Assembly (NCBI GenBank): GCA_965246715.1
Contig: CBDFFH010000020.1
Coordinates: 197,726 to 261,725, forward strand
Length of the DNA: 64,000 bases
Direction of reading: 5' to 3'
Source: Chamaesiphon sp.
Lineage (GTDB): Bacteria; Cyanobacteriota; Cyanobacteriia; Cyanobacteriales; Chamaesiphonaceae
This document shows positions 16,426 through 50,850 of this stretch, in pieces (the first letter of the stretch is position 1; the number at the start of each line of letters is the position of its first letter). Both the position numbers and the translations under genes were made by a program. The notes below the pieces were generated by a model. That model was not told the DNA's origin. It was given only the letters and a program-made list of their open reading frames with translations, and did no database searches.

Positions 16426-16581
16426 AGAGTTAGCTTCGGGGCGGTAAAATTTGCGTTGTGTGAGTAGTCGATCGAGTTTAGTTGCTGACAATTCTCGATC
16501 GGGTAACTCGATCGATAATATGCAGGTTTTAGAAAAGAAATTTTGGTGGGAATTCGAGCATCATCGATTCAAGGATCGTCC

Positions 16582-20967: not shown

Positions 20968-21200
20968 TTGACTTTATTAACTTTGAAAAATTGACTATAA
21001 ATGATATTTAGGGGATCTGGCGATGTTTTCGTGAGATACATCGCTGGAGAGTAATTATCCTCTACTGCCAGTGTATCGATTACATCGTCATCTCTGCATA
21101 TTCCTGTTCCTCCTCCTGTTCCATCTCCTGTTTTGGGGCTATTACAAATACCTCCATCTCTATCTCTGGGGCGTGGGTACTTGCTTCGTATATTCCCGCC

Positions 21201-21237
21201 GTTACAACCCTCATCAGCCTAAAATAACTGATGTCAC
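21201..21237 (-). CRISPR. Solitary degenerate CRISPR repeat just downstream of cas7
   Basis: Minus strand reads GTGACATCAGTTATTTTAGGCTGATGAGGGTTGTAAC, 37 nt, with the hairpin and 3' handle of the array repeat. Confidence 0.85.
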
Positions 21238-21253: not shown

Positions 21254-22114
21254 TTAAGCTAACTTATTAATAATTGGTGGATATTGAGTTTGCAGTCCTG
21301 CGATCGCATCACTCAGTCGAGTTAAGATTACACCTTCGGGAGCAGTACTTAAATCGATGCTATGAGTCTGTGTGTGCTCATCAACATTAACACTGACTAA
21401 ATTAGAGATCTTATTCAATTGAGCATTACCGTAAGGAGTACTATGTGTCGCCACGACACATTCAATCAAATCCCATTCACCCCGCTGTAAACTGGCTGTT
21501 TGCATTGCATGGTGCCATAGACAAATTAGCCATTGCCCCATATATTCAGCATCGATAATATTATTACGTTGCTTGTTAATGCAAGCATTAAATGTTCCTG
21601 TACCCTTGGTAACTACCCAATCAATATAAGAAGCATTACCCATCGTGCGATTCCCTTTGGAGTTAGTTGTTGCACTGGTGACGGCTTGTTCGATCGGCGA
21701 AGGGATATTGATTGAAACAGATGGATAGAGTCGATAAATTCCGCGAAAGCCTGTATCAATTACTTCTTTTTTATCTTTGCCAAAACTGGCGAATAATCCA
21801 CCATTGCCACGCCTATCCCAATAATCTCCCATCAGATCGGCTGGAGTCTTTTTATCTTTGATATATTTCTGCTGGATATCATCTAAATTATTGCCACTAT
21901 GATATAAATTACTGACACCATATAATAGTTCCGCCGTTTGGTTAATGCGGTTACTCATACTCGTTGGGGTAGCATAAATATGGCTATTGGGAAGCTGACG
22001 TGGTGCATTTCCAGCATTGGGATCGCCATTTGGATTACAGATGCGTCCTTCCATAATCATCACGTAGTCATGGCGGACAGAGGGATTGGTAACAATCGTC
22101 GTTGGATTAGACAT
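21254..22114 (-). CDS. cas7: Cas7 (Csd2-like), type I-C
   Basis: N-terminal DYVMIMEGRICNPNGDPNAGNAPRQ matches the Cas7c NPNGDP motif; YWDRR.NG; HSTPYGNA. Confidence 0.88.
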   Translation of the reverse strand: MSNPTTIVTNPSVRHDYVMIMEGRICNPNGDPNAGNAPRQLPNSHIYATPTSMSNRINQTAELLYGVSNLYHSGNNLDDIQQKYIKDKKTPADLMGDYWDRRGNGGLFASFGKDKKEVIDTGFRGIYRLYPSVSINIPSPIEQAVTSATTNSKGNRTMGNASYIDWVVTKGTGTFNACINKQRNNIIDAEYMGQWLICLWHHAMQTASLQRGEWDLIECVVATHSTPYGNAQLNKISNLVSVNVDEHTQTHSIDLSTAPEGVILTRLSDAIAGLQTQYPPIINKLA

Positions 22115-22168: not shown

Positions 22169-23854
22169 TTATTCGGATGTTTTTCCGACAGTAGCAGTGC
22201 GCCTTGCTTCCTGAAATTGGCTGATTCCCAGAGCTAAGAAAAAGGCTTGTTCGTCAGTCCAGCGTTTAGGTGGAGAAGCATTGGGGCAATCTTCTCCAAG
22301 TTCAGAGAAAGTTTTGTCGTACCAAACAGCTTTATCCGGTCTTGCGGCTAAGTAGGGAATAACTTTGGTGATGATTTGGGCAAAGCCCTGTGCTGGAGAA
22401 CTGAAGAGAGTTTGACGATAAGAATCAAGGGGATCTTTCCACCCTTCTCCTGGTGCCGCACTACGGGCAGCATAATAATAAGACATGGTTTTGCAAGCAG
22501 CAAAAACTCGTCCGACATGCCATGCAAATAAATTATCTGGTGTTGTTTCTGGTTTCATCATTCGATCGCCTTCTATAAAATTAGGGGAAAGCCAAGCTAA
22601 ATAAGCAATTTGTGCCCATTCTCGGTTTGATTTTTTTGCGTTGGGGTTGGGAACACCCTCAATTTTGAGCCGATGAATAACACTGTTGGTAATTGCTTGG
22701 GGCGGCAAATGACCGTTAATCATGGCTTCAAAAATCTGTTCGTTAGCTTTGGTAACTGCTTGTTTGCTGCTACCTTCAGCCACTGTTAACGCACCAAACA
22801 CCCAATAAGGCTTGGAAATTGTCAGATAACGTCGCTGTTGCTGATGGTAAAAAAGCAGATTATTCAGGAGTTTTAGAATAGATAGATCGGTTATCTGTCC
22901 GATTGCAGCCCGTCCCTTACCACTACCACCAATCCCAATATAGCCACAAGCAATTTTTAGATCTTCTGGTATTTTTCCAATACTTTTGGCTCCAATATTG
23001 ACTAAATTGATAATGTCTTCCAATGCTTGAACGGGATCTAAATCGGCGGCTCCATCCGAACCAAAAAAAGCGGCAATCTCCTTACCTGCTTCACTAATTG
23101 CTGCCATCTCTGGCAATGCCCCCCAGACCCAATAAAGACCGCCTCCTAGCCAGATGTTATGACCTTTGGCTTCTAGTAACTCCGTATATCGCTGAGTTGC
23201 AATTACAGCTTTTTCCGCTGAGATGTTGAGCGCAATTTTTTCATGTTGTCCCCACGAACGAAACATATCATCGTTGCATCCTAGCAGCGGAGCCGCTAAT
23301 TTCTTCGAGTGGATTCTGGGTAAAGTTCCTAGCAAATTTCCATCACCATTACCGATCGCCCGTTCCAAAGTTTGAGCTGCATGAACAGATCGAATTGCGG
23401 GTAGATCGTGGATATAAGTCCCGTCTTCTAGTCGCCAGACAATACGCCCATTTTCGATCGCGGTAATATCTGCTTTCGGTTTTTCAGCGATTTGTCGCTC
23501 TAATTCTAGTGGACGATCTGACTGCATCCAATCGACGATCCATTGTAACTCTGGAACTTCTAGACAGCGTTGCTTCAAAGCTTCAACCATCGCCGCAAAA
23601 GCTTGGGGCTTGCGAGTCGGATGGTAATAATCTAATTTGTCCGACCCGACAATTGGTGCAATCCCCGAAGTGCGGGGCAGATCTGGCAACCAAAAGCGTT
23701 TACGGGTTTTGTTATCTGTTTCCAGTGGCATTAGATCTGCGGCGGAACCAATTTGTCCATTAGCTCCAAGTAGAATTTCAATGCCCACATCCATTGGCGT
23801 ATAGCCATAGGGACGATCGATTCCCGTCGGAGAGACAACTGAATTAATTTGCAT
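22169..23854 (-). CDS. cas8c: Cas8c (Csd1-like) large subunit
   Basis: Lies between cas5 and cas7; PRTSGIAP..DKLDY and C-terminal AWHVGRVFA...EQAFFLALG; probable start ATG 23854 with GGAG RBS, overlapping the cas5 stop. Confidence 0.8.
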   Translation of the reverse strand: MQINSVVSPTGIDRPYGYTPMDVGIEILLGANGQIGSAADLMPLETDNKTRKRFWLPDLPRTSGIAPIVGSDKLDYYHPTRKPQAFAAMVEALKQRCLEVPELQWIVDWMQSDRPLELERQIAEKPKADITAIENGRIVWRLEDGTYIHDLPAIRSVHAAQTLERAIGNGDGNLLGTLPRIHSKKLAAPLLGCNDDMFRSWGQHEKIALNISAEKAVIATQRYTELLEAKGHNIWLGGGLYWVWGALPEMAAISEAGKEIAAFFGSDGAADLDPVQALEDIINLVNIGAKSIGKIPEDLKIACGYIGIGGSGKGRAAIGQITDLSILKLLNNLLFYHQQQRRYLTISKPYWVFGALTVAEGSSKQAVTKANEQIFEAMINGHLPPQAITNSVIHRLKIEGVPNPNAKKSNREWAQIAYLAWLSPNFIEGDRMMKPETTPDNLFAWHVGRVFAACKTMSYYYAARSAAPGEGWKDPLDSYRQTLFSSPAQGFAQIITKVIPYLAARPDKAVWYDKTFSELGEDCPNASPPKRWTDEQAFFLALGISQFQEARRTATVGKTSE

Positions 23855-24521
23855 AGCCGCCTTCTCCACGTCGGGGATATGCCGGAACTGTGACCACTCC
23901 ATCAATTATCTTGGCTTCAAACATCACTGCTGCGCCCGTGACTCGTTCCATCGGTCGATCGGCGAGCATTGCTGTTGTTCGACGGGCAAATGTCTTCTTG
24001 ACAGGTTTAGAGGTGGGTTCCCAAGTCCAATAGTGAGGCATTCTCCCTAGACTCATTTGTTTTATATCGATCGGTGCTGGACTAACAGCATCCTTGGCTA
24101 GTAGCTCTACCGTGGCAGGGTAATCACTGATGCCCATGCTAGGTTGATAATAGTGTTGTCCGCTCAGGAGTCTTCGAGCTAGTTGACCGATTCGTTCCTT
24201 CGAGTCAACTTCGCTGTCACAGTCTAGCCAGAAATCCACTAAATATTTTGGTTCTACGAGTAGCTCATAAGTTCTTAGCCAGGGATCGCCCGTTTGGTGA
24301 TTGAGTTGGGTGACAGTCTCAGTTGTGTAGGAGATCGGATTTAATATAGAAATCGATTTGACCTGAACTGACTGACCTGGATGCCAATAAACTGCATTAA
24401 TTATTCCTTCCACTGCGGTGGGGGTAATAATCGGGTATGTACTCGGTTCGCCTGGATTACCAGGTCTTTGAAAGTGCCCAAGTGGAGCACTAATGATTAC
24501 TTTCAAACGACTCACTCCCAT
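23844..24521 (-). CDS. cas5: Cas5c (Cas5d), crRNA-processing Cascade subunit
   Basis: FQRP...STYPIITPTAVEGIINAVYWHP and YYQPSMG match type I-C Cas5 motifs. Confidence 0.9.
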   Translation of the reverse strand: MGVSRLKVIISAPLGHFQRPGNPGEPSTYPIITPTAVEGIINAVYWHPGQSVQVKSISILNPISYTTETVTQLNHQTGDPWLRTYELLVEPKYLVDFWLDCDSEVDSKERIGQLARRLLSGQHYYQPSMGISDYPATVELLAKDAVSPAPIDIKQMSLGRMPHYWTWEPTSKPVKKTFARRTTAMLADRPMERVTGAAVMFEAKIIDGVVTVPAYPRRGEGGYAN

Positions 24522-24543
24522 GCACTAATTTGACTTCTATCTA

Positions 24544-24572
24544 ATATTAGCGATATCATTTGAAAATAGCAA
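24544..24572 (-). promoter_or_regulatory. Putative sigma70 promoter of cas5-cas8c-cas7
   Basis: TTGCTA-N17-TAATAT on the minus strand, with the -10 ending about 22 nt before the cas5 ATG. Confidence 0.7.
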
Positions 24573-24573
24573 C

Positions 24574-24608
24574 AAAAAACATCACTCAGTTTAATGAATG
24601 ATGTTTTT
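24574..24608 (-). terminator. Intrinsic terminator closing the mini-array transcript
   Basis: AAAAACATCATTCA-TTAAAC-TGAGTGATGTTTTTT hairpin with U tract on the minus strand. Confidence 0.75.
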
Positions 24609-24717
24609 ATGCTCGCCAGTATTAGATATTTACAACCCTCATCAGCTTTTCAAGGCTGGTGTCATCTCTCAATTGTAGATCTTACAACCCTCATCAGCCC
24701 CGAAAAAATGGTGTCAC
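24609..24717 (-). ncRNA. crRNA-like mini-array (repeat, 15-nt spacer, repeat, 20-nt guide); CreR-like
   Basis: Degenerate 37-nt repeats at 24681-24717 and 24629-24665; the guide TATCTAATACTGGCGA matches 24538-24553 at 14/16 behind TTC; candidate promoter TTGAGA-N18-TAAGAT at 24735-24764. Confidence 0.85.
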
Positions 24718-24765
24718 TGTAGCTCGTCTATAACATCTTACCTACCATTCTCTTACGATCTCAAT

Positions 24766-26916
24766 ATGATTCTCACACCTCTAGCTCGTCCGAATCAACC
24801 ACTGTTGGCACACTTACTCGGAGTCGGTCATCATACTGGTCGATTATGCTCTTCCCAATCGGATTGGGCAAGGTTAATTGGATTGCTACACGATTATGGT
24901 AAATATCGCCCTGAATGGGTAGAGGGGATAAATGCAATTGCCAATGGGGAAAATCAGGACAAGCTTCCTGATCATGCTGTCGAAGGTGCGCTGTATCTAA
25001 TCGAGATGTTTCCAGATCGATCTCATTTTAAGGTGAGGGCGTTAGCATTATTAATTGCTGCTCACCACGGTGGTCTGGGGGATCTGAAGCCAAGCATGGA
25101 TTGGTTAGCAGGAAAGGATTCTGCTCGTCCGCTCCCAGATATGGATCGTTGTCAATGGAAGATTGATGATAAGTATTTAGTTGAAGTAAAAAAGACGATC
25201 GCTGTTGCTAAATATAGTGATTTAGATACTTGGATGCCTCCTAATGACTATCGTACCGCTCAACGACTGCGATTTTTGTATGGTGCGCTAATTGCTGCCG
25301 ATCGACAGGATGCAGCGATGAGTGATGGATGGAAACCTGCTACATATTGCTCGATGACAACACTGGCAGATAAATTGGCTACTTGGTATGAATCGAAATT
25401 TAGCCAGCCTGAAAATCCCTTGGATAGATTGCGGGGTGATTTTTATACTGAGTGCCGGAAGGCAGCAAAGCTTGAACCAGGCTGGTTATCAGTGCGTGGG
25501 CCATGTGGTATATCCAAGACTTGGAGCGTGATGCAAATGGCTCTCGATCGTGCAGCCCAATGGGATAAACAAAAGGTGATTTATTGTGTGCCTTGGACGG
25601 CAATTTTAGGGCAGTCTTACAACCAGTACCAGGAGGTATTAGGTGCTGATAATGTTCTCGGACACTGGAGTACGTTAGTCGATCCTAAAACTCAAGATCC
25701 TGAGCAACTTCGTAACTCTCGACAGTGGTGGGAAACTCCCGTTATCGCTACGACAATGGTGCAACTGTTTGATGTGTTACTAGGATCTAGAGCGCGGACG
25801 GCGCAACGGATGCCCAGTTTGCAAAATGCTGTGATTGTCTTGGATGAAGTGCAGGGATTACCGAATGAGCTACTCATTACTTGCATTAAAGTACTCGACC
25901 AGCTAGTTCAAGACCACGGAGTAACGATTATCCTGTCTACGGCAACTATGCCAGATTACGCACCTTTGGGCATTAACCCGATCGAAGCACTTCCTCAGAC
26001 TAAAGTTGATGAATATTTTGAGGGAACTAAACGGGTCGAATATCGATGGGCTGAGGAACCCCTAACATGGGAATCCATCGCCGCTGAAATCGTCCAATCT
26101 CAAAAAAGTAGCACCCTGATTGTGACAAATACTGTGGCTGCTTGTGATGATGTTTATACTGTTATGCAGTCTCTGCCAAATCATCGAGTCTATAAATATA
26201 CTGCAAGTATGTCTCCTGCCCATCGTGCTGTGGTCTTGGCAGAGATTAAGGCAGCGGTTAATGAAGCAAAAGAAGGCGGCAATCCTGTAATTATTTGTGC
26301 GACTAGCGCGATCGAAACGGGTGTAGATCTCGATTGTACTCAGGGCTATCGCGAACTATCAGGATTAGAATCGATCGTGCAGTTTGCCGGAAGAATCAAC
26401 CGGAATAAGAAGGATAGTGAGTGTCCTGTGACTATATTTAAAACTGTAAAACATTATCCAGTCCCACCTGGTAGCGATCGACGCACAACTCGCACTTTAC
26501 AGGCTATGGCAATGGGTACCGATCTACAGTCCCCCAATGTATTGGCATTTTACAGTCAGCTAATTTTCCAAGATGCGCTTTCATCACAGCAAAATCCCAA
26601 TGTTTATAATTACTTGGAGGGTCTTAAAAAGTTGGAATGGGAGACTGTCAGCCAAAAATGGCAAATGATTTCTCCGACAACTCCAGTATTAGTCGATCCT
26701 CGCTTATGGGATGCCTCTGTTAGTATTCTTGCTGAATATGATGAGGCCATGAGCGAGGCTAATTATCGCGTCTTACAGCGGCACTGTATTGGTATGTACA
26801 AGCGCAAGTACCAACAAGCTAAAGACGATCGATGTATTGTTGAGAGTCAAATCAAAGGTCTAGATGAATGGGTTGGTATTTATGACATGGGTGTAATCCT
26901 CAACGCGAACCCCTAG
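24766..26916 (+). CDS. cas3: Cas3 HD nuclease-helicase
   Basis: LLAHL, GLLHDYGK, AHHGGL, ADRQD; variant Walker A GPCGISKT, LDEVQ, SAT, ETGVDLD, QFAGRINR. Confidence 0.95.
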   Translation: MILTPLARPNQPLLAHLLGVGHHTGRLCSSQSDWARLIGLLHDYGKYRPEWVEGINAIANGENQDKLPDHAVEGALYLIEMFPDRSHFKVRALALLIAAHHGGLGDLKPSMDWLAGKDSARPLPDMDRCQWKIDDKYLVEVKKTIAVAKYSDLDTWMPPNDYRTAQRLRFLYGALIAADRQDAAMSDGWKPATYCSMTTLADKLATWYESKFSQPENPLDRLRGDFYTECRKAAKLEPGWLSVRGPCGISKTWSVMQMALDRAAQWDKQKVIYCVPWTAILGQSYNQYQEVLGADNVLGHWSTLVDPKTQDPEQLRNSRQWWETPVIATTMVQLFDVLLGSRARTAQRMPSLQNAVIVLDEVQGLPNELLITCIKVLDQLVQDHGVTIILSTATMPDYAPLGINPIEALPQTKVDEYFEGTKRVEYRWAEEPLTWESIAAEIVQSQKSSTLIVTNTVAACDDVYTVMQSLPNHRVYKYTASMSPAHRAVVLAEIKAAVNEAKEGGNPVIICATSAIETGVDLDCTQGYRELSGLESIVQFAGRINRNKKDSECPVTIFKTVKHYPVPPGSDRRTTRTLQAMAMGTDLQSPNVLAFYSQLIFQDALSSQQNPNVYNYLEGLKKLEWETVSQKWQMISPTTPVLVDPRLWDASVSILAEYDEAMSEANYRVLQRHCIGMYKRKYQQAKDDRCIVESQIKGLDEWVGIYDMGVILNANP

Positions 26917-27072: not shown

Positions 27073-30000
27073 GTGACACCAGTCCTTCGGGGCTGGTGAG
27101 GGTTGTAAGCTAGCGAAATTGTCCCACTTACTTACACCACTTCGTGACACCAGTCCTTCGGGGCTGGTGAGGGTTGTAAGTTGCCGGGTAGTCTCGCCGA
27201 AAAGCAGCAAGCCTACGAGGTGACACCAGTCCTTCGGGGCTGGTGAGGGTTGTAAGACATAAACCGTATAGCTAGCGGTAGCTGTGGCTGGAGCAGGTGA
27301 CACCAGTCCTTCGGGGCTGGTGAGGGTTGTAAGTAAATACTGGCAAAGATGATCCAAATTTAAAAGGGGTGACACCAGTCCTTCGGGGCTGGTGAGGGTT
27401 GTAAGATCGAAATTGCCAGCAAAACGGTAGTTCTTACCCCGTGACACCAGTCCTTCGGGGCTGGTGAGGGTTGTAAGTCGATCGTTATCATCTCCGATGA
27501 GAGGCAGAATAACCGCGTGACACCAGTCCTTCGGGGCTGGTGAGGGTTGTAAGGAGTGGGGAGCGGCGATTCTCGCCCTTAAGGCGTGACACCAGTCCTT
27601 CGGGGCTGGTGAGGGTTGTAAGACTCGATCGGGCAACAACAAGGCACTCAGTACTATGTGACACCAGTCCTTCGGGGCTGGTGAGGGTTGTAAGGGGTTT
27701 GTCTGTTTGCTCCGTTGCAGAGGGATAGATGTGACACCAGTCCTTCGGGGCTGGTGAGGGTTGTAAGAAGTAGTATTACTGCAAAACAACAATCATTTGG
27801 AGTGACACCAGTCCTTCGGGGCTGGTGAGGGTTGTAAGAAAGTCGATAATTTCGTATGGCTTGGTGCTGGGTGACACCAGTCCTTCGGGGCTGGTGAGGG
27901 TTGTAAGTCAACGATCGATTGCCGATCTCGATCCACTCCCGCGTGACACCAGTCCTTCGGGGCTGGTGAGGGTTGTAAGTAGGATCGGTGTAGCACTTGG
28001 CAGAGTCGGGGATAGTGACACCAGTCCTTCGGGGCTGGTGAGGGTTGTAAGGCCGATTGTTCTGAAACCCATCTTGACAGACTTTAGTGACACCAGTCCT
28101 TCGGGGCTGGTGAGGGTTGTAAGCTCGATACCACCGATCGAGCGGTCCGTCTCGATGTGACACCAGTCCTTCGGGGCTGGTGAGGGTTGTAAGTGAGTTA
28201 GATCGGATGGGCCGATCGATTGTAGTGACACCAGTCCTTCGGGGCTGGTGAGGGTTGTAAGAGACATGATTCGATCGGCATGATGACATCATATTCATGT
28301 GACACCAGTCCTTCGGGGCTGGTGAGGGTTGTAAGAATTTAATTAATCACTTAATATCATAACTCTCTGTGACACCAGTCCTTCGGGGCTGGTGAGGGTT
28401 GTAAGCAAATCATTGCTTACTGGTGCTAGTTGTGGCTGGCAGTGACACCAGTCCTTCGGGGCTGGTGAGGGTTGTAAGGGATGGCTAATCACACAACTGT
28501 CTATCACCATAAACCCACGTGACACCAGTCCTTCGGGGCTGGTGAGGGTTGTAAGAACGCGATCGCTCAACCAGGCGATGCAAGCGCGGTGACACCAGTC
28601 CTTCGGGGCTGGTGAGGGTTGTAAGACCATTTTGATAGTAAATCCGATCTGTTTCTATGTGACACCAGTCCTTCGGGGCTGGTGAGGGTTGTAAGCAATA
28701 CTTAAATTCTCCGTGCACCGAGAAATACAATGTGACACCAGTCCTTCGGGGCTGGTGAGGGTTGTAAGGAGCCAATAGACAATTGGAGCTAAGAGTTGTA
28801 GTTGAGTGTGACACCAGTCCTTCGGGGCTGGTGAGGGTTGTAAGTGTTGATAATCGCACCAGCTGGCAGGATTAACGCAGTATCAGGTGACACCAGTCCT
28901 TCGGGGCTGGTGAGGGTTGTAAGCTTAAACTAAGCGGAATCACTAAAAACGAAATGCTGTGACACCAGTCCTTCGGGGCTGGTGAGGGTTGTAAGTTTGA
29001 GTATTATAGGGAGACTAGAGCGGGCAAGAATTTTGTGACACCAGTCCTTCGGGGCTGGTGAGGGTTGTAAGTTTGGGCAAGTCTTCTACCGACCATTCAG
29101 ATGCGTGACACCAGTCCTTCGGGGCTGGTGAGGGTTGTAAGATGAGAATTCGCCCAGTCATCGCAAACTCGAAGTGACACCAGTCCTTCGGGGCTGGTGA
29201 GGGTTGTAAGTCAGGGACTTGCTCTTTTGAAATCGAGGATGGGGAGGTGACACCAGTCCTTCGGGGCTGGTGAGGGTTGTAAGAATTTGATTGCCCGCAG
29301 GATGACGATACAAATAGGTGACACCAGTCCTTCGGGGCTGGTGAGGGTTGTAAGTGCCAGCATGAGTGTTAACACCATTAACAGCCGTGACACCAGTCCT
29401 TCGGGGCTGGTGAGGGTTGTAAGTAGAACATTGAAATTGTTGAATATTATCTGTGTGACACCAGTCCTTCGGGGCTGGTGAGGGTTGTAAGGCAAATGCC
29501 GTATCGCAGCGATCGAGATGCTCCGTGACACCAGTCCTTCGGGGCTGGTGAGGGTTGTAAGCGTCCATATCGAGTATAGTCACTGACTCAAATGTGACAC
29601 CAGTCCTTCGGGGCTGGTGAGGGTTGTAAGTGGAAGCTATGTAAAAATTCTCGATCGCTACCCAGGTGACACCAGTCCTTCGGGGCTGGTGAGGGTTGTA
29701 AGAAAACAATGACATTAGTAAACAAAATTGAATCGATTGTGACACCAGTCCTTCGGGGCTGGTGAGGGTTGTAAGAGCCCGAAACGGCTAGCCACAGCTC
29801 AAAACTCATTGTGACACCAGTCCTTCGGGGCTGGTGAGGGTTGTAAGACGACAGCAAGTCAAACACTGATTTTACCGACGGTGACACCAGTCCTTCGGGG
29901 CTGGTGAGGGTTGTAAGCAATTGTGTCCGTGTCCGGGGTCTGATACGCTGTGATGTGACACCAGTCCTTCGGGGCTGGTGAGGGTTTGTAAGGGGAATAA

Positions 30001-31005
30001 TAATCGTCGCGCCGCCCAAACCGCAGGTGACACCAGTCCTTCGGGGCTGGTGAGGGTTGTAAGTCCTGAACGGTCGTCCTACAACAGTAAAAACCTTATC
30101 GACGGTGACACCAGTCCTTCGGGGCTGGTGAGGGTTGTAAGCAAAAAGGCTCGGAAAATGCCAATGATAGCTCACGGTGACACCAGTCCTTCGGGGCTGG
30201 TGAGGGTTGTAAGATGGCGTGCCGATCGAGATGGACGATACCTATGTGTGACACCAGTCCTTCGGGGCTGGTGAGGGTTGTAAGAAAACTTACTGGAGCG
30301 GACTTACTCGCTCGCATGTGACACCAGTCCTTCGGGGCTGGTGAGGGTTGTAAGCTAGCGATACCTCAGTATTGCTGTTGACCTGAATTGCCATTATGTG
30401 ACACCAGTCCTTCGGGGCTGGTGAGGGTTGTAAGGATCGTTAAGGTATCGGTACCCCTGTCCCAGTAAATGTGACACCAGTCCTTCGGGGCTGGTGAGGG
30501 TTGTAAGCCTGGAAAGTTAACGATCGCCCCGCGCAAGACGTGACACCAGTCCTTCGGGGCTGGTGAGGGTTGTAAGTGTTGTTATACCCTAGATTTCGCA
30601 ATTCTTTAGGTGACACCAGTCCTTCGGGGCTGGTGAGGGTTGTAAGAGTCGATCGGGTGTCATCGCAAAACCATATTGATAATATGACATCAGCCTTTCA
30701 GGGCTGGTGAGGGTTGTAAGGAGTATGGTACGCCAATCGTCCTCAACATCTACACGGTGACATCAGCCTTTCGGGGCTGGTGAGGGTTGTAAGAAGTCGA
30801 TCCATTAAGGTGTGGCGAATTGTGCAGCTTTTTTTTGGGCTGCTGAGGATGGTAGTTCTGTGGGACAACGTTGTCCCACAGAACTACTGGGTGACATCAG
30901 CTTTTCTTTGGGGCTAGTGAGAGCTATGAGAACGGCAAACTAATTCTTACTCTGCGGGGCAATACCGATGACATCGGCTCCGAAAGGCTGATTAGTGCTG
31001 TAAAT
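27073..31005 (+). CRISPR. CRISPR array, about 55 repeats and 54 spacers
   Basis: 37-nt repeat GTGACACCAGTCCTTCGGGGCTGGTGAGGGTTGTAAG occurs 50 times (the copy at 29955 has an extra T), then 5 increasingly degenerate trailer repeats from 30684; spacers about 28-43 nt. Confidence 0.99.
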
Positions 31006-31183: not shown

Positions 31184-31588
31184 GTGGTAACTATGAGTAA
31201 CGTTAACGATCGGAGGATTTTTGAACTTGACCTTGGTTGTCCGTTAGAACCAGATGATCTCTTAAGCTACTATGCAAATGGAATGCTTATTCCAACAGAT
31301 CGAGAGAAGTTTTTGAAAAACCATGTTGAAAATGGCTATAAGGAGCCTCTTAAAATACTTGCGAATCGTGAGAAAAGAGCTGCTGAAGAAATAACCGAAA
31401 TCCTAAAAATGGAGTCTGAGTACAAGTCTGAAACAGAAGAACAGAAGAAAGGCCGATGGATAAAAGAGAAAAAACAAGATGCCCATGACTATCACGACCT
31501 ACAAAAAGACTTACGGGCTTGGGATAATGATAGTGACGAGCCTAGACCGAGCACTAATTGGCGAGAATTGGAAATGTACGGACTGTAG
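31184..31588 (+). CDS. Hypothetical charged protein
   Basis: 134-aa ORF (ATG at 31193 is an alternative start); no recognisable motif. Confidence 0.6.
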   Translation: MVTMSNVNDRRIFELDLGCPLEPDDLLSYYANGMLIPTDREKFLKNHVENGYKEPLKILANREKRAAEEITEILKMESEYKSETEEQKKGRWIKEKKQDAHDYHDLQKDLRAWDNDSDEPRPSTNWRELEMYGL

Positions 31589-31709: not shown

Positions 31710-34700
31710 TTATATTGCTATCTCTATTTCCCACTCCTGTTCATGATTCTCTGTTTGTATTGGGACAAATGCTGGGATAGATTGCTCTGTTTGCTCTTGA
31801 GCTGGACTTGCCTCGTATATACCCGCAGAGTTGAGGTACAAGTCATAGCCCGCTTCCACAAGATAATCTCTGGTCATTTTATCGATGCCCGTGTCAGCAC
31901 CGACTAAAAACTTCGCTTTAGCCTTTGTTGCAATATCGATCTGTGGTGCATACTGAGTACGAAAATGCTGTGCCAGTAACTCGTTGCTAGTATCCCTCCC
32001 CGTCCGATTCCCGCTGACCATTACTACATCTGTCGATTTGTAGGCGGTTACATTAGCATTAGTACCCCAGTTGTCGCGGTACATAGATGTGCGACTTCTA
32101 GCTTCGAGTGGAATCCCAATATATTTGTTAGCCGCAAATCCCATCATGATATCAGTCTGAGCGCGAGACTGTAGCTTAGTCCAGTCCTTGTTTGCGCTGT
32201 AAGAGTTGAGGATTGGGTTACTCCGCTTAATCCCATCCCGCACCAAAACGTGACTGACAGCACGATCGTTGAGATAAGTTTGTAATACGGCAGATTCCAC
32301 CACCGCAAAGTATCGGGTTGATTTGCCATCCTCGCTGGGTAGCTCGGCACCGATTGGTAAGCCCAGGTGATAAACTGCTGTGTCTCTTTGTCTCGAATTG
32401 ACAAATTCAAACACGACCGACGATCCAATCTCGACTCCTTTACCCTTGAATCTAGTTAAAACCTCTCCAGCGATCGGTTTTAGACTGTAAGAGACAGGTC
32501 TAGATCTGTTCAGATCTAACATTGGGGTATCTGTGGCTTGCGGGTATCGTTCGATCCATTTCTTGAGAATATTAAGTTCGATCGGACACCGATAGCGAGT
32601 AATGGGGATGCTGGCAAGTTTAGCTTGGTAATCTGCTTGAGTGACTGGCTTCCCTAGTTGTTTAGAAATCATGCTTTTAACCGAACTTTCCAACCCTGCT
32701 GGATCGAGCCGCAATACCGTATACGAACGACGAGATTCCTCATAGCTGGCGGGGATACCACGTTCCATTTTTGTATAATTGACATCCTTCTCTGTGAGCC
32801 TTTTTTCGACCGCAACAATCTTGTTTTCTGGTATGACTAACAGTAGCTGCTCAACTTCTTTCAATCCTGACTCATCAACAATGGGCACCATAACCTTAAC
32901 TGAAAAAGATTGCGGAAAGGAATTACGATCGGCTTGACGACGCAAGTTGCGACTTGTCTCTTCCAAAACAACCTTGACTCGATCGCGAAGCGCGCTACCA
33001 AGGCGGTCGCTCTTAAATTCGACTGATTTCAATTCCCTGACTGTCAATTTTGGGCTTTGTACCTCATCTTTTGTAGCGCGCTGATAAGTCCTGGCAGGTT
33101 CGACATCGGCCCAGATATTGCTGTTGTAAAGAGTATTCTCATCAATCGATATTTTATATCCAACTTGTTTGGGGATGACACTCTGCACTTTAATCGAGAT
33201 TTCATCGGTATCTGCAAGCTCGGTAATCCGATTGCCCCAAAATTTTTGCTCGGCAGTTTGCGTAATCTCCCCAATCCTTGTCTCACCGCTGTAGACCTCG
33301 ATCGTTGAATTTGGCTCAAGATCTCTGACTAAATCGACTGATATTGCTTCAAACCGTTCCGTGCGGACGGGTTCGGTAACAGTATCGCGATTTTTTTTCT
33401 CGTAAATGGGACTAGAATTTACTCCTGACAGATAGTAAGTTACACCAGCAATCGCTACGGTTGCAGAGAACTTGTTATCAAAAATCTTGAGTCGTTCGAG
33501 CGTCAGCTCCGCCGATTGCCCGTCACCCAAAACCGCTGTAATTTCTGGAGCGATGTCAATAACTTTAATATCGATCTGCTCTGATGGCACTACTAAACGA
33601 TAATTTGGTGTCTGGGTGCAGATGACTCGGATCTCCCTCACATCGCCACTGTCGATTAAATGCTTGCCCTCCCCAGTCAGTTTGCCCACCAACACCGATC
33701 GTTGGTTTCCCTCTAACATCGGCGATTTAAACGTGACGGTGTTGTAGTTAGGCTCGATCGTGCCCTGGAAGCTAGTCTTATCTAGCAGTTGAATGCCATA
33801 GCCAGTCAACTGACCAGCTTCGATCCACTGCTGTTTACCATCAACTTCTGCCTGTGCTTTAAGTTGTTTCGTACCATCGCTACCTGCCATCACAAAGTAC
33901 TTGGTGGGTTTGGTGAGGTAATCTGGATATTGGGTATCCATAATAATCTGCCCCGCTCCCCGATCGAAGATAAATTCATTCAGTGTCTGGGGTAAAGCAC
34001 TCAACAAGAAGTCTTGAGAGATTGCTTTCTCTCCTACCATTTGAGCGGTGGCAGCAAATACCTCACGCTTGTCCCAGCCTCGCTGCTCGATTTGGGCGCG
34101 GAAATCTGCCAAGACTTCGCGGGATTCGGCTTTGAGTTCGTCAATGCGGTTGTGGAGGACTTCAAATTCAAAATCGCTCACATGCTGTTTGCCCTCAGTA
34201 ATAGCCGAAGTTTTCGCACTCGATCCCAGCGTGTACTGATAGTCGATCCCCAATGAGGTTGACGAATTAGCGGGATAAAAAGTCACCAAGCCATTGCTAG
34301 ATTCGATCGCTCCCTTGCCTTCAAGTTGGCGAAAAGTATTAATCTCGCTGACATTACAGTCGCCGACGACAATTTTACTGCCATTAGTAGTGTAGATATT
34401 GAGGACGATCGGTTTGCCAAATTTCAAATCATCTAAGGCTTTTTTCTCAAGTGCGATCGTCGATTGAAGATTTTGGTAGTCGTCACGGAAATTGGCGACC
34501 ATCGCCTTCATTTCTGGCTCGACTGGAACAGATCGCAATTGACTGATTAGTGCGTTCAAGGTCATGCTACTGCTCGGTGGTAGCCGATTCTGGTGGTTCT
34601 CCTCAACGATGAATCGTTTGAGTAATTGGATCCCAGCATCGAGTTCGGGTAGCTTGTTGGTAACGGCATAGACTGTTCCCTCGCTGGGTTTCACCCCAGA

Positions 34701-37080
34701 TTTGACAAAATCTACCGCTCGTTGATTTTCTCTATCTACGACTTCAATACATTTGCGGAGTACGACGGTTTGGTAATCGCGTAAGTAAGTGTCGATCTGG
34801 GCGGGATCGTAGGGATAGTTGGGAGTAACATCGATCTTTTCGGTAAAAATCAGGGGTAGATTAGTGTCGGGATCGATCGTTGGTTGGTTACTCGTCAATG
34901 GTTGAGAGAGATCGATAATCTTACTTAACCGTTCGCGCACGCTCGCGTAGTTCTCAAGATAATTCACCAGTAAAGCTGGATCTGCCTTACCCTCACGGAT
35001 CGCCATCAGCTTCATGGACTTGACTTTCTCCATATCCTCAATCAGATCTGAAGGAAAAACAATCCCCTTCTTCGCATTGATGGGTTTAGCTGCAAGAGTC
35101 TCCGCGTGATACGCACCTAGTAACTGCGCGATTGGCTTTCTCACTAGATGAAGATAGTTAGCTTGAGTGTGGGGATTGTCCGTCTGCTCTTTGATGAAAT
35201 CGACGCTAAACAAAGGTGTGAACTGCTCGAACGTGGCTTGAAGTTCTGGCGGAACTTCAAGTTGTAAATTAACATCTGGCTCGACCACAGATTTTGCATC
35301 CGCTCGATACTTGTGAAAAGAGCTGTAAATTAGTTGCAGTGTCTCGGTTTTGAGCTTTTCGGCAGATCGGCGATCTGCTGCTGATAACTCTCCATCCGTG
35401 CTGGCGATGATAAAATCCAAACTTGCATAGAGTTTATTGATTTTACTCAGTTCGCTATTGATAATCCCTACATAATCTTTCAACCGTTCGACCACCATCC
35501 CAGGTAAATCTTCACTTTGAATTAGCTGCTTCTTGTCCTTCGAGACGAAGTGCATCAACTTTTCTGGGGTGAGGTTATCGACGACTTCCTGATAGAAATT
35601 GGGATAATCTCGTTCGGCAAATAGGGCGATCTGATCCCCATCGAAATCTGCCTTCATCGCCTCCAAATTTGTCCGCCAAGATGCTCGTGCTGCTGCGATC
35701 GAGCCAAACTCTTCAATAATCTGTTGATAGGTTTGGGGGTCATCCTGCTCGATTTCTGCCAGTGTCTGGCGACCGACATAGATCGCATCGGGGATGACTC
35801 CTTCTAGTTCGGGATTGAGAAATAGGGAGATGTTGTTATTGACTTCTACCGCTTGGACTTGTCCGCGATTGAGAACGGGAAACCGCAGCGCGACATGCTT
35901 GTCGCCAGTAGTTAAGCCCGCTCCAGCAATCTGATTGTGCTTGAGTTCGCCACAAACGACAATCGGGCGAAACTCACCTCGCATTGATGAGATCGCTCCT
36001 TCATTAATATTCTTAATTTGTCCGTCCACGTATTCCTGGAGGTTAGCGCGGACGCTAGGTAATTCGAGCAGTCCCCAATTCTTGGATTCTAAGATCGTAT
36101 CGATGAATGCGATATTTCCTGGTAGTTCGACTTCGGGTTTGCCCTTTTTTACTTCCTCCTGTTGGGATATTTTGAAGGTGCGGACGTAATCTTCCGCCAG
36201 ACTGATGAGATCCATCTGCTTTTGTTGGCAAATCTTGAATCGCTGTCTGAACGGGGATGCTCACATCTTTTGCCAATCCCAGAGCGTATAAGTCCTGCAC
36301 GGAACCGAGTTTGGCGGTAGTTTGACGGAATCGCTCGGTTCTGATGATAAATAGATCCGCAGGCTCGACTTGATGAATGCCAATTTTAGGGGGAAGCTTA
36401 CCACCACCTAAACCTTTGAGCATCGATGTGGTTAAGACTAAATCCACATCTACATCCACCCCATGAGTGGCAAAGTATTTCTGGAGATTGAGGGGAGTAA
36501 CTGTACCTTTGATATAGTAGGAGCCGATTTGGGGATCGAGGCTGTATCCGCGCACTTGGGATAAGCCGACATCCTCAATTAATTTCATCCGTTCGCCGAC
36601 GGATCGATCGATTATGCTCGCACCGTCGGCGGCAATATTGCGGATCGCTATTTCTGGGATACCGTAGTTATTCTGACCCGTTTCATGGTCTACTACCAAT
36701 ACCTTCAACTGACGATCTAGGGACTGGCTTTGTCCTTTTGCAAATAAACCCCTGGCGTAACCTGGAATCTGAGTTTCTAGGGGCATTAACGTCTTAATTG
36801 CCGCCTTGACTTCAGGAGTACCAAAATAGAGTTGAGCCGAGCTTGTAGCTAGTAAGACGGTGCCTTCAGGGGCATGGTTGGTGAGGTCATCAACGTTGAT
36901 ATATTTGGAGTAGGGAGCAACGTAAAATGTTGGCTGTTCGCCCTCTTTTAGTAATCCTTGCCGTCGCATTAATTGTTCTATGGTAGTACCTTCCCTAATC
37001 TCCGATCTAATCGCGCCAGAACTTACAGAGATTTGAGGTCTTCTATTGATGAGATCGTAATTGATTAATTTAATAGACAT
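31710..37080 (-). CDS. Two-barrel (YonO/RdRP-like) single-chain RNA polymerase with C-terminal SLOG-like domain; split by a 1-nt frameshift near 36227
   Basis: ORF 36055-37080 has DGASII, QVR, IKG and LTTSMLK; ORF 31710-36215 has RFPVL and ADFDGD (35634-35651); removing one base joins IQDL to QQKQMDL, giving about 1790 aa. Confidence 0.8.
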
Positions 37081-37145: not shown

Positions 37146-37889
37146 TTAATATGGAATGTCTTCTTCGTTTTCTACTTGTCTAGAGATGATTTTGGGTGGT
37201 GGCGGTGGTTTAGTAGATTGAGTTGCTATGCCTAGAAAATTTTGATGGCTTTGAGTTAGAAATCGCTGAATTCTTATTCTGGTTAATACTGGAATCTCGA
37301 TATTTTCTGGGTGGGCTAAATGATGAAGGATTGCCCCACTTGCTTCGATGAATTCGATTTCTGTGGGGTTGGTAATTATTCCTGGCAGATCGCAGATGTT
37401 AAAAAGGTCTGTTTCGTCATCCGTCTTTTCCAGCTTTCCCCAAACCCGTGCGTATTGATTCCTCACCCAATTGAGTTGCCAATCGTAGTTACATAGCTCT
37501 TGAAAGTAGTTAATACTGTCTCGATGTCCGTTACTGACAAACCAGAAATTATGTCTGATATCGGCGGTGAGAATACCTGAGATATTTATCCATTCCAAAA
37601 ACTTTACTTGAGAGTGACTGGCTAACTTAATTACCAATCTTTTATGGGTATGTACTAATTTGAAGATTTCATCGGCATCTAAATTATTGCTAATGAAATA
37701 TTGACTGGGAGCATGAGATTCTAATAAAAAGGGATTGTAGATTTCACTTAATGGTGAATTGGGACTGGTATCGATTACGATGGGAACGACTTGGAAATCA
37801 TTGAAAAATAAACTTTCCGTCAATGCTCGAACTGTCCAAGATTTACCGACTTGTGGTAAATTACCGCCAACCCAATGAATTTGAGCCAT
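37146..37889 (-). CDS. MobD/ParA-like P-loop protein (degenerate)
   Basis: N-terminal IHWVGGNLPQVGKS, then VIDT; located in a plasmid transfer region. Confidence 0.55.
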   Translation of the reverse strand: MAQIHWVGGNLPQVGKSWTVRALTESLFFNDFQVVPIVIDTSPNSPLSEIYNPFLLESHAPSQYFISNNLDADEIFKLVHTHKRLVIKLASHSQVKFLEWINISGILTADIRHNFWFVSNGHRDSINYFQELCNYDWQLNWVRNQYARVWGKLEKTDDETDLFNICDLPGIITNPTEIEFIEASGAILHHLAHPENIEIPVLTRIRIQRFLTQSHQNFLGIATQSTKPPPPPKIISRQVENEEDIPY

Positions 37890-38344
37890 CAGTTCTGCCC
37901 CGCATAAGTTAGATCGATCTCTGTATCATTTTTAATACCTAATTTCTCAATAATCCCCGCTTTAACTTCTATCACCGCATCGTATTTTTGTTGAAGTGAA
38001 TAGTTGGTGCATCGGTCGGTGCAAGGGGTCACGTTGGCATATAGTCCCACTACTCGGTTCTTGTTGATGAAAATCAGATCTGTCGCAAATTCCATACCTT
38101 TACCACTAAATGTTAATGGTTGTTGGGTTGTGGTTTGATATAGCATTCCTCGATCTGATGGGATATCTGGGCGATGGGTCAATCCTGTTTGTTGTGCGAT
38201 CGCATTCTTGGCGACCTCTAATTTAATTGCCTTGTCGCCAATCGTCGCCTGTGCTGTAATTGGCAAGATTGTTGGCTTGTTATTGCTAACTTTAAATAAG
38301 CTGCTAACATCGACTCCATGTAGATAAATTGGAGCTAATAGCAT
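37889..38344 (-). CDS. DUF192-family protein
   Basis: LEVA...QQTGLTHR..IPSDRGMLY...VIEVKAG; the upstream ORF extension runs through heptamer repeats and is probably non-coding. Confidence 0.8.
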   Translation of the reverse strand: MLLAPIYLHGVDVSSLFKVSNNKPTILPITAQATIGDKAIKLEVAKNAIAQQTGLTHRPDIPSDRGMLYQTTTQQPLTFSGKGMEFATDLIFINKNRVVGLYANVTPCTDRCTNYSLQQKYDAVIEVKAGIIEKLGIKNDTEIDLTYAGQN

Positions 38345-38559
38345 TACTAAATATGGAAGCTGTCCTTTGGTTAAAAATACGTTTTTTTTGTTGAAATTAA
38401 ACACGTTTTTATAAGGGGGAGGGGAGTGGGGGCGTAAGGGGGCAGGGGGGTAGGGGCGTAAGGGAGTGGGGGAGTAACGGAGTAACAGAGTAACGGAGTC
38501 GGGGAGTAACGGATTAAGAACACCACCCAACACCCCAACACCCCCACTCCCCAACTCCC

Positions 38560-40083
38560 TCACCCCCTCCTCCCCACGTAAATATCTAATTCCGGTAAAT
38601 CCAGAGCTGTAGGCTGGTTGGAACTGGCTGCTTCTGTAAATGCTTTGGCTCGGTTTTCAATGGCGAGGACACCTTCAGGGTTCGCGACTGTAGAGACTCT
38701 TGACCCGATTTCGGGCTGTGAGCAACGAATCTGCATCGATTTGAATGTTTTGACCCTGACCTTTGTAGAACTGCATCTTGGCTGCAACAATCGCCATTTG
38801 TGCCAGTTCTGCACCTGTATATTTATTGGTGGCTTCAATAATCGTCAGCCACTCTTCAATGCTCAATGGCCCATGTTCTGACTGGGCATACCGTTTGATC
38901 GAAGCTAGCGCAGTGCAGTTGGAGAATCTGTTTGCGCTCGTCAGAGCTAGGGAAATCCACGTAGAACACCCTGTCGAATCTACCCGCACGTGAGTTCAAA
39001 AGCGGAGGTTTTCGAGACGGTTCAAGTTGCAAGTCACGAAAGTGGCGGAAGTCTTCTCGTTGAGCCAAGTGAGGAGAATACCGAGTAATTCTTTGCCATG
39101 TTCGTCGGCAAAGAACTTATCGAATTCATCGAAGTAGGCGATGCAGGGTTCGCAGGCATCGATCCGCTTGAGTAAGTTGCTTAAACTTGGCAACACCGCC
39201 GGATCTGACTACATCGATGCCGATATTTACTAAGGGAAGTCCCAGTTTTTGAGCGCAGATCTTCGCGAAATAAGTCTTCCCCGCCCCAGGTACACCGACT
39301 AAAATCCAGCCTCTAGGCAGCGGTAGTCCGCATTCTTTCGCGGCTGGGGTGAAGTCCATTTTCACTTCTTCTAGAGCCTGCTTGACTAGATCCATCCCAC
39401 CAATATCTTTGGTGGTGGTATCGCCGATGAATTCTAGTCCGAAGGATTTGAATAGAGTCGTATTTGTAGTTCAAAAGGCGATCGCCTAGAGTTTCGAGGT
39501 TGGTAAGAACATCGCGATTGGCTCTAATCCCAACGGTAATTTCCTCTACTGTCAGACCCGCTAAAATGTTGGCTAGTCGGGGCGATTGCAGTCAAGATCG
39601 ATCCCATGCTCTAATAGGAGAGTAGTTAGCTCAAAAGTTGTGGGTAAAGGAAATTTATATTCCCAAATAATTTGGCTAAAAAAGAAGGAATATTCCCTCG
39701 TCCCGATTCCATGAAGATGACCAGACATTCTCGATTTAATGATTGAGTCGGGCGAATAGTTGCGAGATTGCTTGATAACAACCTTCGCGTTCTATTGGCG
39801 ATACTGCATCGATGAGAGCAAACAGGTTCTCGAATACATACAAGCCATTGGTATTAGCTTGTAACGAGCTAATTGACTCGATCGCTGCGTTAGCTGGATC
39901 TCTATCCAGCGATCCGACCCATTGTGATAAGGGCTGAAAATCTGGCTGCAATAACGACCATAAATAAACGGGTTTATTTAACTCATCCCCCACTAATTGA
40001 ATCTTGTCTAGAGTGTGTTGACGATCGATTACTGTCGTCTCGACCTTAATTAATGGATAGTTCCTAATTAAGTTTTTCAACAT
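38560..40083 (-). pseudogene. Ycf46-like AAA+ ATPase with multiple frameshifts
   Basis: Consecutive fragments in different frames carry GVPGAGKT (Walker A), YFDEFDK (Walker B), RAGRFD and YTGAEL. Confidence 0.8.
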
Positions 40084-41457
40084 TACTGCTCGATCCCCTC
40101 TGCTCGATCCAGATCTGGGGCTTCTGTTTGGAGTACGGTAATCGGTCGTCCATTGGCTGGACTTTGAGCCTCAGTACTCGAAATTTCACCGTTTGGCTTT
40201 GAATTCAGTTCGTGGAGGTTGACCGGAATTTCTGGTTCCTCCTCGCCAAAGGTCGAGCCATAGGGCGGTGGTGGTGGGCGAATCGCGATGTGGCGGTAGG
40301 TTGAAGATTGGGGGTCTTCTGAGTTGTTGGGGATGTAGATTGAGATTTAACGGGGGTTTTCGGTGCGGGTTGCTGATTTTGGGCTTGTAACTGTCGTTCG
40401 AGGTTGCTACTTTGAGTCTCAGATCTGCTACTTCATCGAAGCGAAGCGCGCCGTCTTCTGCCAAGGCAGACGCTACGCGAACGGCGGTCGAAGTTTCTAC
40501 CACTGCTGCTGGTTGCCAAGTTTTAACCGCATCGACTGTCTGAGGCTTGCTCTGAAGCTGACTTCCAATCCGATCGATCCGCTGTTCCAGTCCGATTAAT
40601 TTGTTTGCCAAGTGCGAAACTTCAATCTGATGTAACGTCTGGGGATGCCGCTGCTGTTCGCGGGCGTTAGCATTTTGGGCGGTACGAATCAGATCGCCGA
40701 ATGACTCTAGCTTGTAGTTTTAACTCTGCGAGTCGATCGTTCGTCTGTTCTAAATCTTCGACATATACTGGGATTGCTCGGCGGCGGGGGCTGTTGCTAG
40801 TCGCTCTAGATCTACTGAATCGATCGATTGGATTGAATCTTCAAATGAGGCTAGATCTCGCTCTAGACTGCTCGTGCGTTCGCGCTCATCTGTGAGTAAG
40901 TTTAAATCGAGCGACAGCCGCTCGGATGCTAGATTGACGAACTTCATTAATTGCCGTTCGGCATCCGTTCCTTGTGTCGCTTGCACCGCGATGTTGCCAT
41001 CTCGATCTACGTCGAAATCGAGCAGAGTCCGCTCGGATTTGGAATCTCTAACCGTATAATTAATCGCACCGTTGGGAGCGACAGATTTATAAAAGATATA
41101 GTCCCGTTCGAGTTGCCGTCCGCGATCGAGGGAGCCAGTCAACTGTTCGAGTCGATCGATAAAAATTGCGGCGTGTCGATAATTGGTATCGCTTAATTTC
41201 TCTCCTTGAGCTAACCGATCGAGATCGGGCATTGATATTTTATCTAATCGAGCGCGTTCGCTAATTGCTGCGGTTTTTCTTTGGATCGCTTCATTCTGGC
41301 TATGCTTGAGAATTGACAACGCACCCAGCATCAATCCGGCTGTCGCTCCCACCAAATTAGCTCCAATCCAGAAACCTAAGTTGTAGCCGAGTTTATGCGC
41401 CCAATCATCGATCTGTTGAATCTCTCTGGTTTTGTCGTCTTTATTAGTTTCGAGCAC
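40084..41457 (-). pseudogene. Frameshifted hypothetical plasmid protein
   Basis: ORF pieces 40750-41529 and 40186-40611 plus linking frames end in TAA adjoining the next ATG at 40083. Confidence 0.5.
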
Positions 41458-41535
41458 GATTTTAATAGGGAAAAGGGGAAGGGGAAAAGGGAAAAGGGAT
41501 CGATTGAAAAGTATTTTGATATTGCCCAATGCGAT

Positions 41536-41901
41536 TTATCCCAAAATATTAGGAGGGATGGTTTCTTTACTCAATTTGACGAGTTCTTCTAGAGAAATTG
41601 GATCGTAATTGCTGGAAAATGTCGCTAATTCCTCTCTGTTTATCGCTTTTTCCAATCGAGCTGTTAAGTGAGAAAAGATGGTAACTCCATTCCGTTCGAC
41701 GATCGCCAATCGGCCATCGAAATACAGCAAGTGATACTTATATTGACGATCTTCTACCCAGTGAATGTAACTGCGGCCATTGTCATCCCGCCACAATTTC
41801 TCGTGCTCGTTCCAGCACTCGGTAATAGCTGGATGCCGATCGAATTTGGGCAACTGTTGCGATGCGACAATTTCGGATTGAATTTGATGATGAGTTTTCA
41901 T
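41536..41901 (-). CDS. Hypothetical protein
   Basis: 121-aa ORF with GGAGG-containing upstream region, in the minus-strand operon. Confidence 0.6.
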   Translation of the reverse strand: MKTHHQIQSEIVASQQLPKFDRHPAITECWNEHEKLWRDDNGRSYIHWVEDRQYKYHLLYFDGRLAIVERNGVTIFSHLTARLEKAINREELATFSSNYDPISLEELVKLSKETIPPNILG

Positions 41902-42060
41902 GGTGGAGGCTAGTAGTTTTAAGTGTGAGGAGTGTGAGGGGGAAGGAAGGGGTAAAGGGTAAAGGGTAAAGGGTAAAAGGTAAAAGGGTGTTTATTTCTC
42001 TGTAACTCCGTTACTCCCCCACTCCCCTACTCCCCCACTCCCCCACTCCCTTTCCCTTTT

Positions 42061-43731: not shown

Positions 43732-43876
43732 AGGGTGGGGGAGTGGGGGAGTGACGGGGTAGGGGAGTGATGGGGTGGGAGCAAGGGAGTGGAAGATTAA
43801 GGGGGTGTAGGGGCGTAAGGGAGTGAGGGAGTAATAAACACACCCCAACACCCCAACACCCCAACTCCCCACTCCC

Positions 43877-44707: not shown

Positions 44708-44726
44708 TATTAAAGCTAAAAAATAT

Positions 44727-49886: not shown

Positions 49887-49959
49887 GGGAGTGGGGGTGT
49901 TGGGGCATAGGGGGAGTGGCTATCTAGCCGATCGATCTCCCTCGCTTATGGCGGTATTA

Positions 49960-50693: not shown

Positions 50694-50850
50694 TGCGTCA
50701 CCTATTTTACCCCTTTACCCTTTCCCCCACACCCCCTTACGTCTCAACTCCCCAATACCCGACACCCAACACCCCTCTTTTCAACCTCCCCACATCCCCT
50801 CTTCCCGACACCCGACACCCGACACCCGATACCCGATACCCCCTTTCCCC

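Follow-up and report, generated by a model that had tools for sequence, protein, structure and literature searches.

Spacer 51 of a divergent type I-C array on a Chamaesiphon plasmid matches a sister-clade polymerase-like gene better than the copy on its own carrier

Results

A divergent type I-C locus without linked adaptation genes

The window, by which we mean the whole 64,000-nt stretch analysed, is part of contig C20 of a Chamaesiphon genome (G000) and contains a CRISPR-Cas locus next to a large polymerase-like gene. cas3 (24766..26916, plus strand) carries HD, Walker A-like, DEVQ and motif VI sequences, which are present and identical in G000, in a second species (G001) and in G013. On the minus strand lie cas5 (Cas5d/Cas5c; 23844..24521), cas8c (Csd1; 22169..23905) and cas7 (Csd2-like; 21254..22114), all three assigned by profile matches. 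The Pfam models Cas5d, Csd1, Cas7 and Cas3-like_C_2 score above cut-off, the cas5c/cas8c/cas7c/cas3 set comes without a linked cas6, and the best NCBIfam matches are I-C models, all below cut-off. A linked cas4-cas1-cas2 is absent; the sole cas1 recovered by a genome-wide search of G000 for this gene is on contig C34, beside a type I-MYXAN locus. On its gene content we classify the system as a divergent, cas1-less type I-C. Close to the 3' end of cas8c (window ~22560), a Met-Met pair that follows a run of purines may be an internal start for Cas11c, an I-C feature.

The array (27073..30793, plus strand) comprises 52 repeats and 51 spacers, with the leader on the left and a degenerate trailer running to ~31080. 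A short TGTGGCT-type motif is common to the leader end (27040-27072) and spacers 3, 19 and 38 (27257-27296, 28406-28441 and 29776-29810; reverse strand). Spacer 51 (30721..30756, plus strand) is the last intact spacer and sits at the array end between two variant repeats (30684..30720 on its 5' side and 30757..30793 on its 3' side, both plus strand), as a sequence-only reading of this DNA had noted. The canonical repeat and both variants form a hairpin with an 11-nt 3' tail, a type I-C trait. Decay of the variants is improbable, as they keep the 9-bp hairpin and the newest repeat type of G001 has almost the same form. The five newest G001 repeats (L001 12310-12935) resemble the trailer variant, ending in T and not G, the repeat type having switched within the array.

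Among the 39 family genomes, three have a close cas8. The G013 cassette is carried by a chromosome-like contig (L029, G013:C156), beside a dnaK-like gene and without the polymerase; its array has 13 spacers, spacers 50 and 51 not among them. Spacer 6 of that array matches a phage-like gene in G019:C13 (35/38 behind ATC). In the I-MYXAN array of G000:C34, two spacers (L064 3184 and L079 10654) match each other on opposite strands at ~30/35, which suggests repeated capture from variants of one element.

The carrier is probably a nearly complete plasmid

C20 is collinear with the 446-kb contig C2 of G001, on which its two ends map ~2.5 kb apart, so C20 is probably a nearly complete plasmid of ~262 kb. 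It has no tRNA, none of the 122 ORFs scanned matched a ribosomal protein, and it carries relaxase-like, ParB-like, DnaB and VirD4-like genes as well as recombinases. A conjugative backbone common to kin plasmids (37146..53007) includes DUF192, AAA, putative T4SS genes and a VirD4-like coupling protein; the AAA gene (38560-40083) is in pieces here and whole in L001 and L024, and may reflect an assembly error like that of the polymerase gene described below. A small backbone ORF (31184..31588, plus strand) is convergent with the polymerase gene and has homologues at the same position in L004, L007, L008, L010, L023 and L024. Cassette, trailer and polymerase gene are linked alike in G000 and G001. 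Plasmid cargo at the left of the window (274-17991) includes trypsin-TPR genes in three paralogous copies, together with COP23 genes, with homologues on G013 contigs. The genome has a second conjugative contig, C27.

The polymerase-like gene

The resident gene (31710..37080, minus strand) encodes a protein of ~1790 aa, most homologues being ~1770-1795 aa long. Its reading frame is split at ~36227 by one extra base. This base is missing from an otherwise identical contig of read run X1, which may be the window's own source, and also from runs X2 and X4, so the split is likely an assembly error; we accordingly rejected the gene's being a pseudogene. Residues D478, D480, G481 and D482 (DFDGD, the DxDGD loop) are conserved in at least 90% of 41 sequences, alongside conserved R-x-P, KG and Asp columns; the DxDGD motif is described as a metal-binding loop in PMC2919709. 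The protein has no Pfam or NCBIfam match, the Pfam RdRP model matched 0/25 homologues, and sequence searches of the PDB and of PLSDB (where near records were possibly omitted) gave no match. An Atlas comparison gave a feature score of 0.96 to a cluster with 73% PF05183, a weak match (recognition 1960). The label 'polymerase' given by the sequence-only reading thus draws on the DFDGD motif and a weak Atlas match, and the protein is probably a cyanobacterial YonO/RdRP-like polymerase, likely of the two-barrel kind. A distant lineage of the polymerase (26-28%) occurs in several relatives (G002:C579, G004:C95, G005:C149 and G021:C64).

Spacer 51 partially matches the resident gene

Recomputing the alignment reproduced the gapless 27/36 match between spacer 51 and the reverse complement of 34389..34424 (resident site on the minus strand), together with the peptides read from it. 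Mismatches fall at positions 1, 3, 5, 9, 11, 12, 15, 27 and 36, six of them at third codon positions; three lie in the seed (1, 3 and 5), and the 5' flank at 34425-34427 is TTG, all as previously described. Within the window the match is beyond chance: the best of 3000 dinucleotide shuffles scored 25, and 67% identity is the highest value among the other 50 spacers. As a second control, random genomic 36-mers scored at least 27 in 59/3000 cases, 46 of which were perfect matches and probably represent shared IS copies. On the scale of the whole genome (~6 Mb), other spacers reach 74-77% (spacer 16, 24/31; spacers 8 and 12, 26/35), and the 27/36 score alone is therefore unremarkable genome-wide: the case rests on the homologues. 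Aligned 36-mers between the resident and target clades reach 27/36 in 42% of cases, so the self-match is the background level expected of two genes with ~70% identity. We found no self-spacers hinting at priming on the resident gene, either in G000 or in ~445 of the 447 kb of G001:C2.

A sister plasmid clade carries the closest targets

A pattern search across 39 genomes recovered spacer 51 in one other genome, G001, with two differences (positions 4 and 11). There the spacer lies in the matching trailer of an 8-spacer array adjoining an intact polymerase gene, a sharing between two species that bears out its description as one of the oldest spacers. The G001 form encodes EHGKPIVLNIYT, a peptide identical to that of 10/35 homologues, while the Thr encoded by the window form occurs in 0/35, so the G001 form is likely ancestral; the window spacer has likely drifted at positions 4 and 11 and become the weaker guide of the two. 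Divergence near spacer 51 is 3-6%, and two changes per 36 nt are consistent with neutral drift. Trailer position alone may explain why the spacer has been retained.

The homologues support the earlier proposal that the spacer came from a related element with the same polymerase family: its apparent source is the polymerase-like gene carried by a sister clade of plasmids. The best target is L024, with 35/36 to the G001 form and 33/36 to the window form; its locus has the same backbone gene order as the window's plasmid. L023 follows with 34/36 and 32/36, and the G005 and G022 targets each with 33/36 and 31/36. All four are preceded by TTC, and position 4 of the window form, in the seed, mismatches every one of them. 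Sister-clade genes thus score 33-35/36 against the G001 form, compared with 27/36 to both spacer forms for the resident copies of G000 and G001 and 29/36 to both forms for G002, a member of the resident clade. In the tree, the targets fall in a 15-row clade (some rows being near-duplicates) that has 100/100 support and is distinct from the resident clade. As the target contigs span just 13-28 kb, their plasmid nature is read from gene content. A perfect 36/36 target was not found among the homologues searched.

Read run X3, a single low-depth sample, yielded window-identical pieces together with a 300-bp contig (depth ~3.5) that differs from L024 by three bases (99%) and covers both protospacer and PAM. 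No reciprocal spacer was found among the 62 from other arrays (54 I-MYXAN and 8 from G028), and none of the other spacers matched the target-clade DNA, ~56 kb in all. Scans of metagenome and viral contigs seeded with proteins gave no confirmed relative, and degenerate patterns for the spacer 51 and spacer 50 targets found nothing in viral contigs, where coverage is thin, and hence no sign of a phage donor. Four further genome-collection matches overlapped known loci and were not double-counted.

Seed mismatches most likely spare the resident gene

TTC precedes 1.6% of positions, and it is found at the spacer 51 targets, at the spacer 50 target and at the promoter-guide target in all three loci that have that guide (see below); one G013 spacer target has ATC instead. 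The TTG flank is confined to the window's resident gene, and all 34 other homologues encode Phe there. This Phe-to-Leu change at the PAM codon is one of three changes at 263 otherwise invariant columns, and TTG is present in run X1 too. The intact resident gene of G001, however, retains TTC with the same 27/36 match. The sequence-only reading had credited both the seed mismatches and TTG with preventing self-cleavage: the former stand as the most likely safeguard, and TTG as a general rule of self-protection had to be given up. In line with this, TTG gave 95-99.5% protection in the Legionella I-C system as reported in PMC5602111, and single seed changes permit escape in the Pseudomonas I-C system described in bioRxiv 10.1101/2020.06.15.151498. 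Since TTC is tolerated in G001, TTG is active in Legionella and seed changes allow escape in Pseudomonas, seed mismatches most likely spare the resident gene, with the Phe-to-Leu change hinting at a secondary, late PAM escape in the window's lineage. Only 2/51 sense-strand TTC sites would be self-dangerous, so that ordinary divergence of ~30% would be enough for targeting a gene that the carrier shares.

A CreR-like mini-array between cas5 and cas3

Between cas5 and cas3 lies a predicted CreR-like unit (24575..24764, minus strand) made up of a promoter-like site, two repeat-like copies (24681-24717 and 24629-24665), a guide starting at 24628 and a terminator-like hairpin (24608-24575). A TTC followed by the guide's target (24535..24553, plus strand) is located inside the cas3/cas5 divergent promoter region; this guide-matching site is single in G000. 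In each of G000, G001 and G013, 13/14 scored positions agree between guide and promoter, and in G013 position 4 has changed in both together. The mini-array guide thus has the conserved, seed-proximal promoter match behind a PAM by which CreR/crlRNA guides are recognized, and the unit is predicted to repress the cas3/cas5 divergent promoters. Spacer 51, mismatched at positions 1, 3 and 5 and matching in mid-gene, lacks this pattern. A repeat of this kind upstream of cas5 was not found in G028 or G007, and no convincing target emerged for the 15-nt spacer that separates the two mini-array repeats. In G001 (L001 15330-17690), the first mini-array repeat, upstream of cas3, carries an insert of ~2.4 kb whose 756-aa ORF belongs to no known family; a relationship of its product to a 720-aa replication-like protein was considered and rejected, the two being unrelated.

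Spacer 50 and the remaining spacers

Spacer 50 (30647..30683, plus strand) is identical in G001 and matches the cas7 (Cst2/DevR) of a type I-MYXAN locus, G011:C332 (L032 1864-1900), at 34/37 behind TTC. Seventeen other cas7 homologue loci score 20-26, and the host's own scores 24. The closest PLSDB relative of this target (72%) is on a 307-kb Nostoc plasmid. Across 123 loci, the 51 spacers yield one kin-plasmid target, one I-MYXAN cas7 target and 49 without a target; searched with the array, PLSDB returned only E=4 matches and phages none. Weak matches of spacers 10, 12 and 48 (25/34, 26/35 and 26/32) lack TTC and were rejected as chance.

Target-clade DNA elsewhere on the carrier

Just after cas7 lies a solo repeat (21201..21237, minus strand) that keeps the hairpin. 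At the first base after it starts the 3' tip, 177 bp long, of a polymerase gene from the target clade (21024..21200, minus strand; 92.7% to L023), and the donor flank is CTC. The first 35 nt of this tip match L023 at 34/35 behind CTC and, going by this match, could serve as a second guide. The tip is absent from G001. About 29 kb to the left of it, a ~4.4-kb arm (C20:185471-189861) shares 88% identity and collinearity with L023. Among the products of this arm is a primase-like protein (PHROG E=1e-4), which joins the target-clade copies in the tree (91.5% to L023, 81.6% to G001; SH-aLRT 97), whereas the window and G001 polymerases are 94-97% identical. The region as a whole (L077 5471-10992, C20:185471-190992) contains this target-clade arm with the primase-like replication candidate, a small ORF interrupted by IS5 and an older polymerase stub. 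A second polymerase was not found in the G000 assembly.

C20 thus holds target-clade DNA without the protospacer. With the tip and the 4.4-kb arm coming from the target clade and the polymerase being G001-like, the plasmid looks like a recombinant that has kept rival DNA from the PAM-distal side, a picture complicated by the older second stub and by inserted cargo. Ordinary recombination at a hotspot would account for the mosaic too, and the junction is taken from the assembly.

Discussion

We regard as established the ancestry of the spacer, its target clade, the TTC register, the intact-looking cas5, cas8, cas7 and cas3, the lack of cas1 on the contig and the retention of the spacer in two species. 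The sister-clade polymerase-like gene is a far better match to spacer 51 than the carrier's own copy, and the spacer probably directs I-C Cascade-Cas3 against such relatives on entry into the cell, leading to their destruction. In the proposed mechanism, Cas1 supplied in trans would have acquired the spacer, Cas5c would process its crRNA, and Cascade would bind TTC-flanked rival DNA and then recruit Cas3, with the resident gene spared by three or four seed mismatches.

Several features would also suit a spacer acquired in the course of ordinary host defence, at a time when the mobile cassette resided elsewhere, for example on a chromosome, and surviving today as a trailer relic with no part in competition between kin. 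The G013 cassette is on a chromosome-like contig without the polymerase, the spacer drifts at the neutral rate, the window form is mismatched in the seed at position 4 against all four best targets, and just 1/51 spacers matches kin plasmids. However, the 13 spacers of G013 include neither spacer 50 nor spacer 51, G000 and G001 share the linkage of cassette, trailer and polymerase, and the conserved promoter guide suggests a working Cascade, so that we hold this account to be rather unlikely. It is very improbable that Cascade uses spacer 51 to bind, without cutting, the carrier's own polymerase gene as a regulatory target: a partial match only 3.6 kb away, the variant repeats around the spacer and the use of a partially matching guide in the mini-array of the same locus all fit such a role, but the actual regulatory guide matches from position 1 and at a promoter, while spacer 51 is mismatched at 1, 3 and 5, points to mid-gene and is 35/36 to another clade. 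Descent from the resident gene itself, followed by mutational escape that included TTC to TTG, would explain why the PAM codon is among only three changes at 263 invariant columns, with TTG also in X1; yet the residents form a different clade, whose G002 member reaches only 29/36 where the sister clade reaches 33-35/36, and TTC is kept in G001, which makes this origin more improbable still. As for chance, other spacers find 74-77% matches somewhere in the 6-Mb genome, but a 35/36 match in frame behind TTC in a homologous gene, and 0/3000 shuffles in the window, leave it a negligible probability.

The preferred reading, targeting of kin plasmids that carry the sister-clade gene, might be extended to the mosaic region, albeit as a speculative scenario that we consider distinctly unlikely. 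The CRISPR system would have cut an invading kin plasmid at the spacer 51 site, and the broken end would have been joined to the solo repeat by Cas1-type chemistry behind a CTC PAM. The rival's replication arm would thereby have been swapped in, the protospacer lost and a second anti-rival guide, transcribed off cas7, gained, with spacer 50 disarming rivals through cuts in their cas7. If CRISPR machinery did join rival DNA at a repeat, repeats would be recombination joints that build mosaic plasmids. We found no paper on the present locus or on repeat-joined capture of rival DNA in a literature search of incomplete coverage, in which the tables of the plasmid survey might list a relative.

Conflict between plasmids through CRISPR is already known, and the present case is a traced example of it with a likely past encounter. 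Starting from a weak self-match, it provides a traceable instance of kin-plasmid targeting among cyanobacteria, whose plasmid arrays are reported to be enriched for virus targets (bioRxiv 10.1101/2021.06.04.447074), with the guide's ancestor, the target clade, the PAM and a one-sample co-occurrence in hand together. It also illustrates a route by which a plasmid could target a gene that it carries, and spacer 51 draws attention to an uncharacterised polymerase-like gene of the backbone.

Comparison with known systems

Plasmid CRISPR systems without adaptation genes, directed at conjugative plasmids from closely related taxa, are an established phenomenon (bioRxiv 10.1101/2021.06.04.447074; PMC11656645), an adaptation module being reported for 36% of plasmid-encoded systems in the first of these surveys. 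The type IV-A and V-M systems of plasmid-plasmid competition, as these two sources describe them, resemble the present locus in their large conjugative carrier, the missing adaptation module and a conjugative target of the same genus. Unlike them, the locus studied here is a nuclease-bearing, divergent I-C whose target is a DFDGD polymerase-like gene that the carrier has as well. The I-C systems on pKLC102 conjugative elements of Pseudomonas aeruginosa (bioRxiv 10.1101/2020.06.15.151498) share the location of an I-C on such elements, the TTC PAM and seed escape by point changes. They differ, by that account, in having mostly phage targets (139/162 matched spacers) and, by implication, a cas1 of their own, whereas here cas3 is divergent from cas5-8-7, the contig is without cas1 and NCBIfam I-C scores stay below cut-offs.

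The CreR/crlRNA guides of cas autoregulation (bioRxiv 10.1101/2023.03.10.532045; 10.1101/2023.03.03.530964) are like the mini-array in their partial match to a cas promoter behind a PAM, and unlike spacer 51 with its mismatched seed and mid-gene target. Spacer 50 recalls the cas-targeting spacers of E. coli CRISPR3 (PMC2886076), which are conserved old spacers against the cas genes of another system; those, however, are described from orphan arrays that hit their own cognate subtype, while here an armed I-C array faces the cas7 of a different subtype. Finally, the cyanobacterial single-chain two-barrel polymerases of the YonO-like and RdRP-like families (PMC2919709, PMC3417536, PMC5467207) have the same DFDGD, R-x-P, KG and Asp columns and include the setting of a cyanobacterial mobile element. 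The resident protein, known from sequence only, departs from them in its length of ~1790 aa and in a long C-terminal part of no known family.
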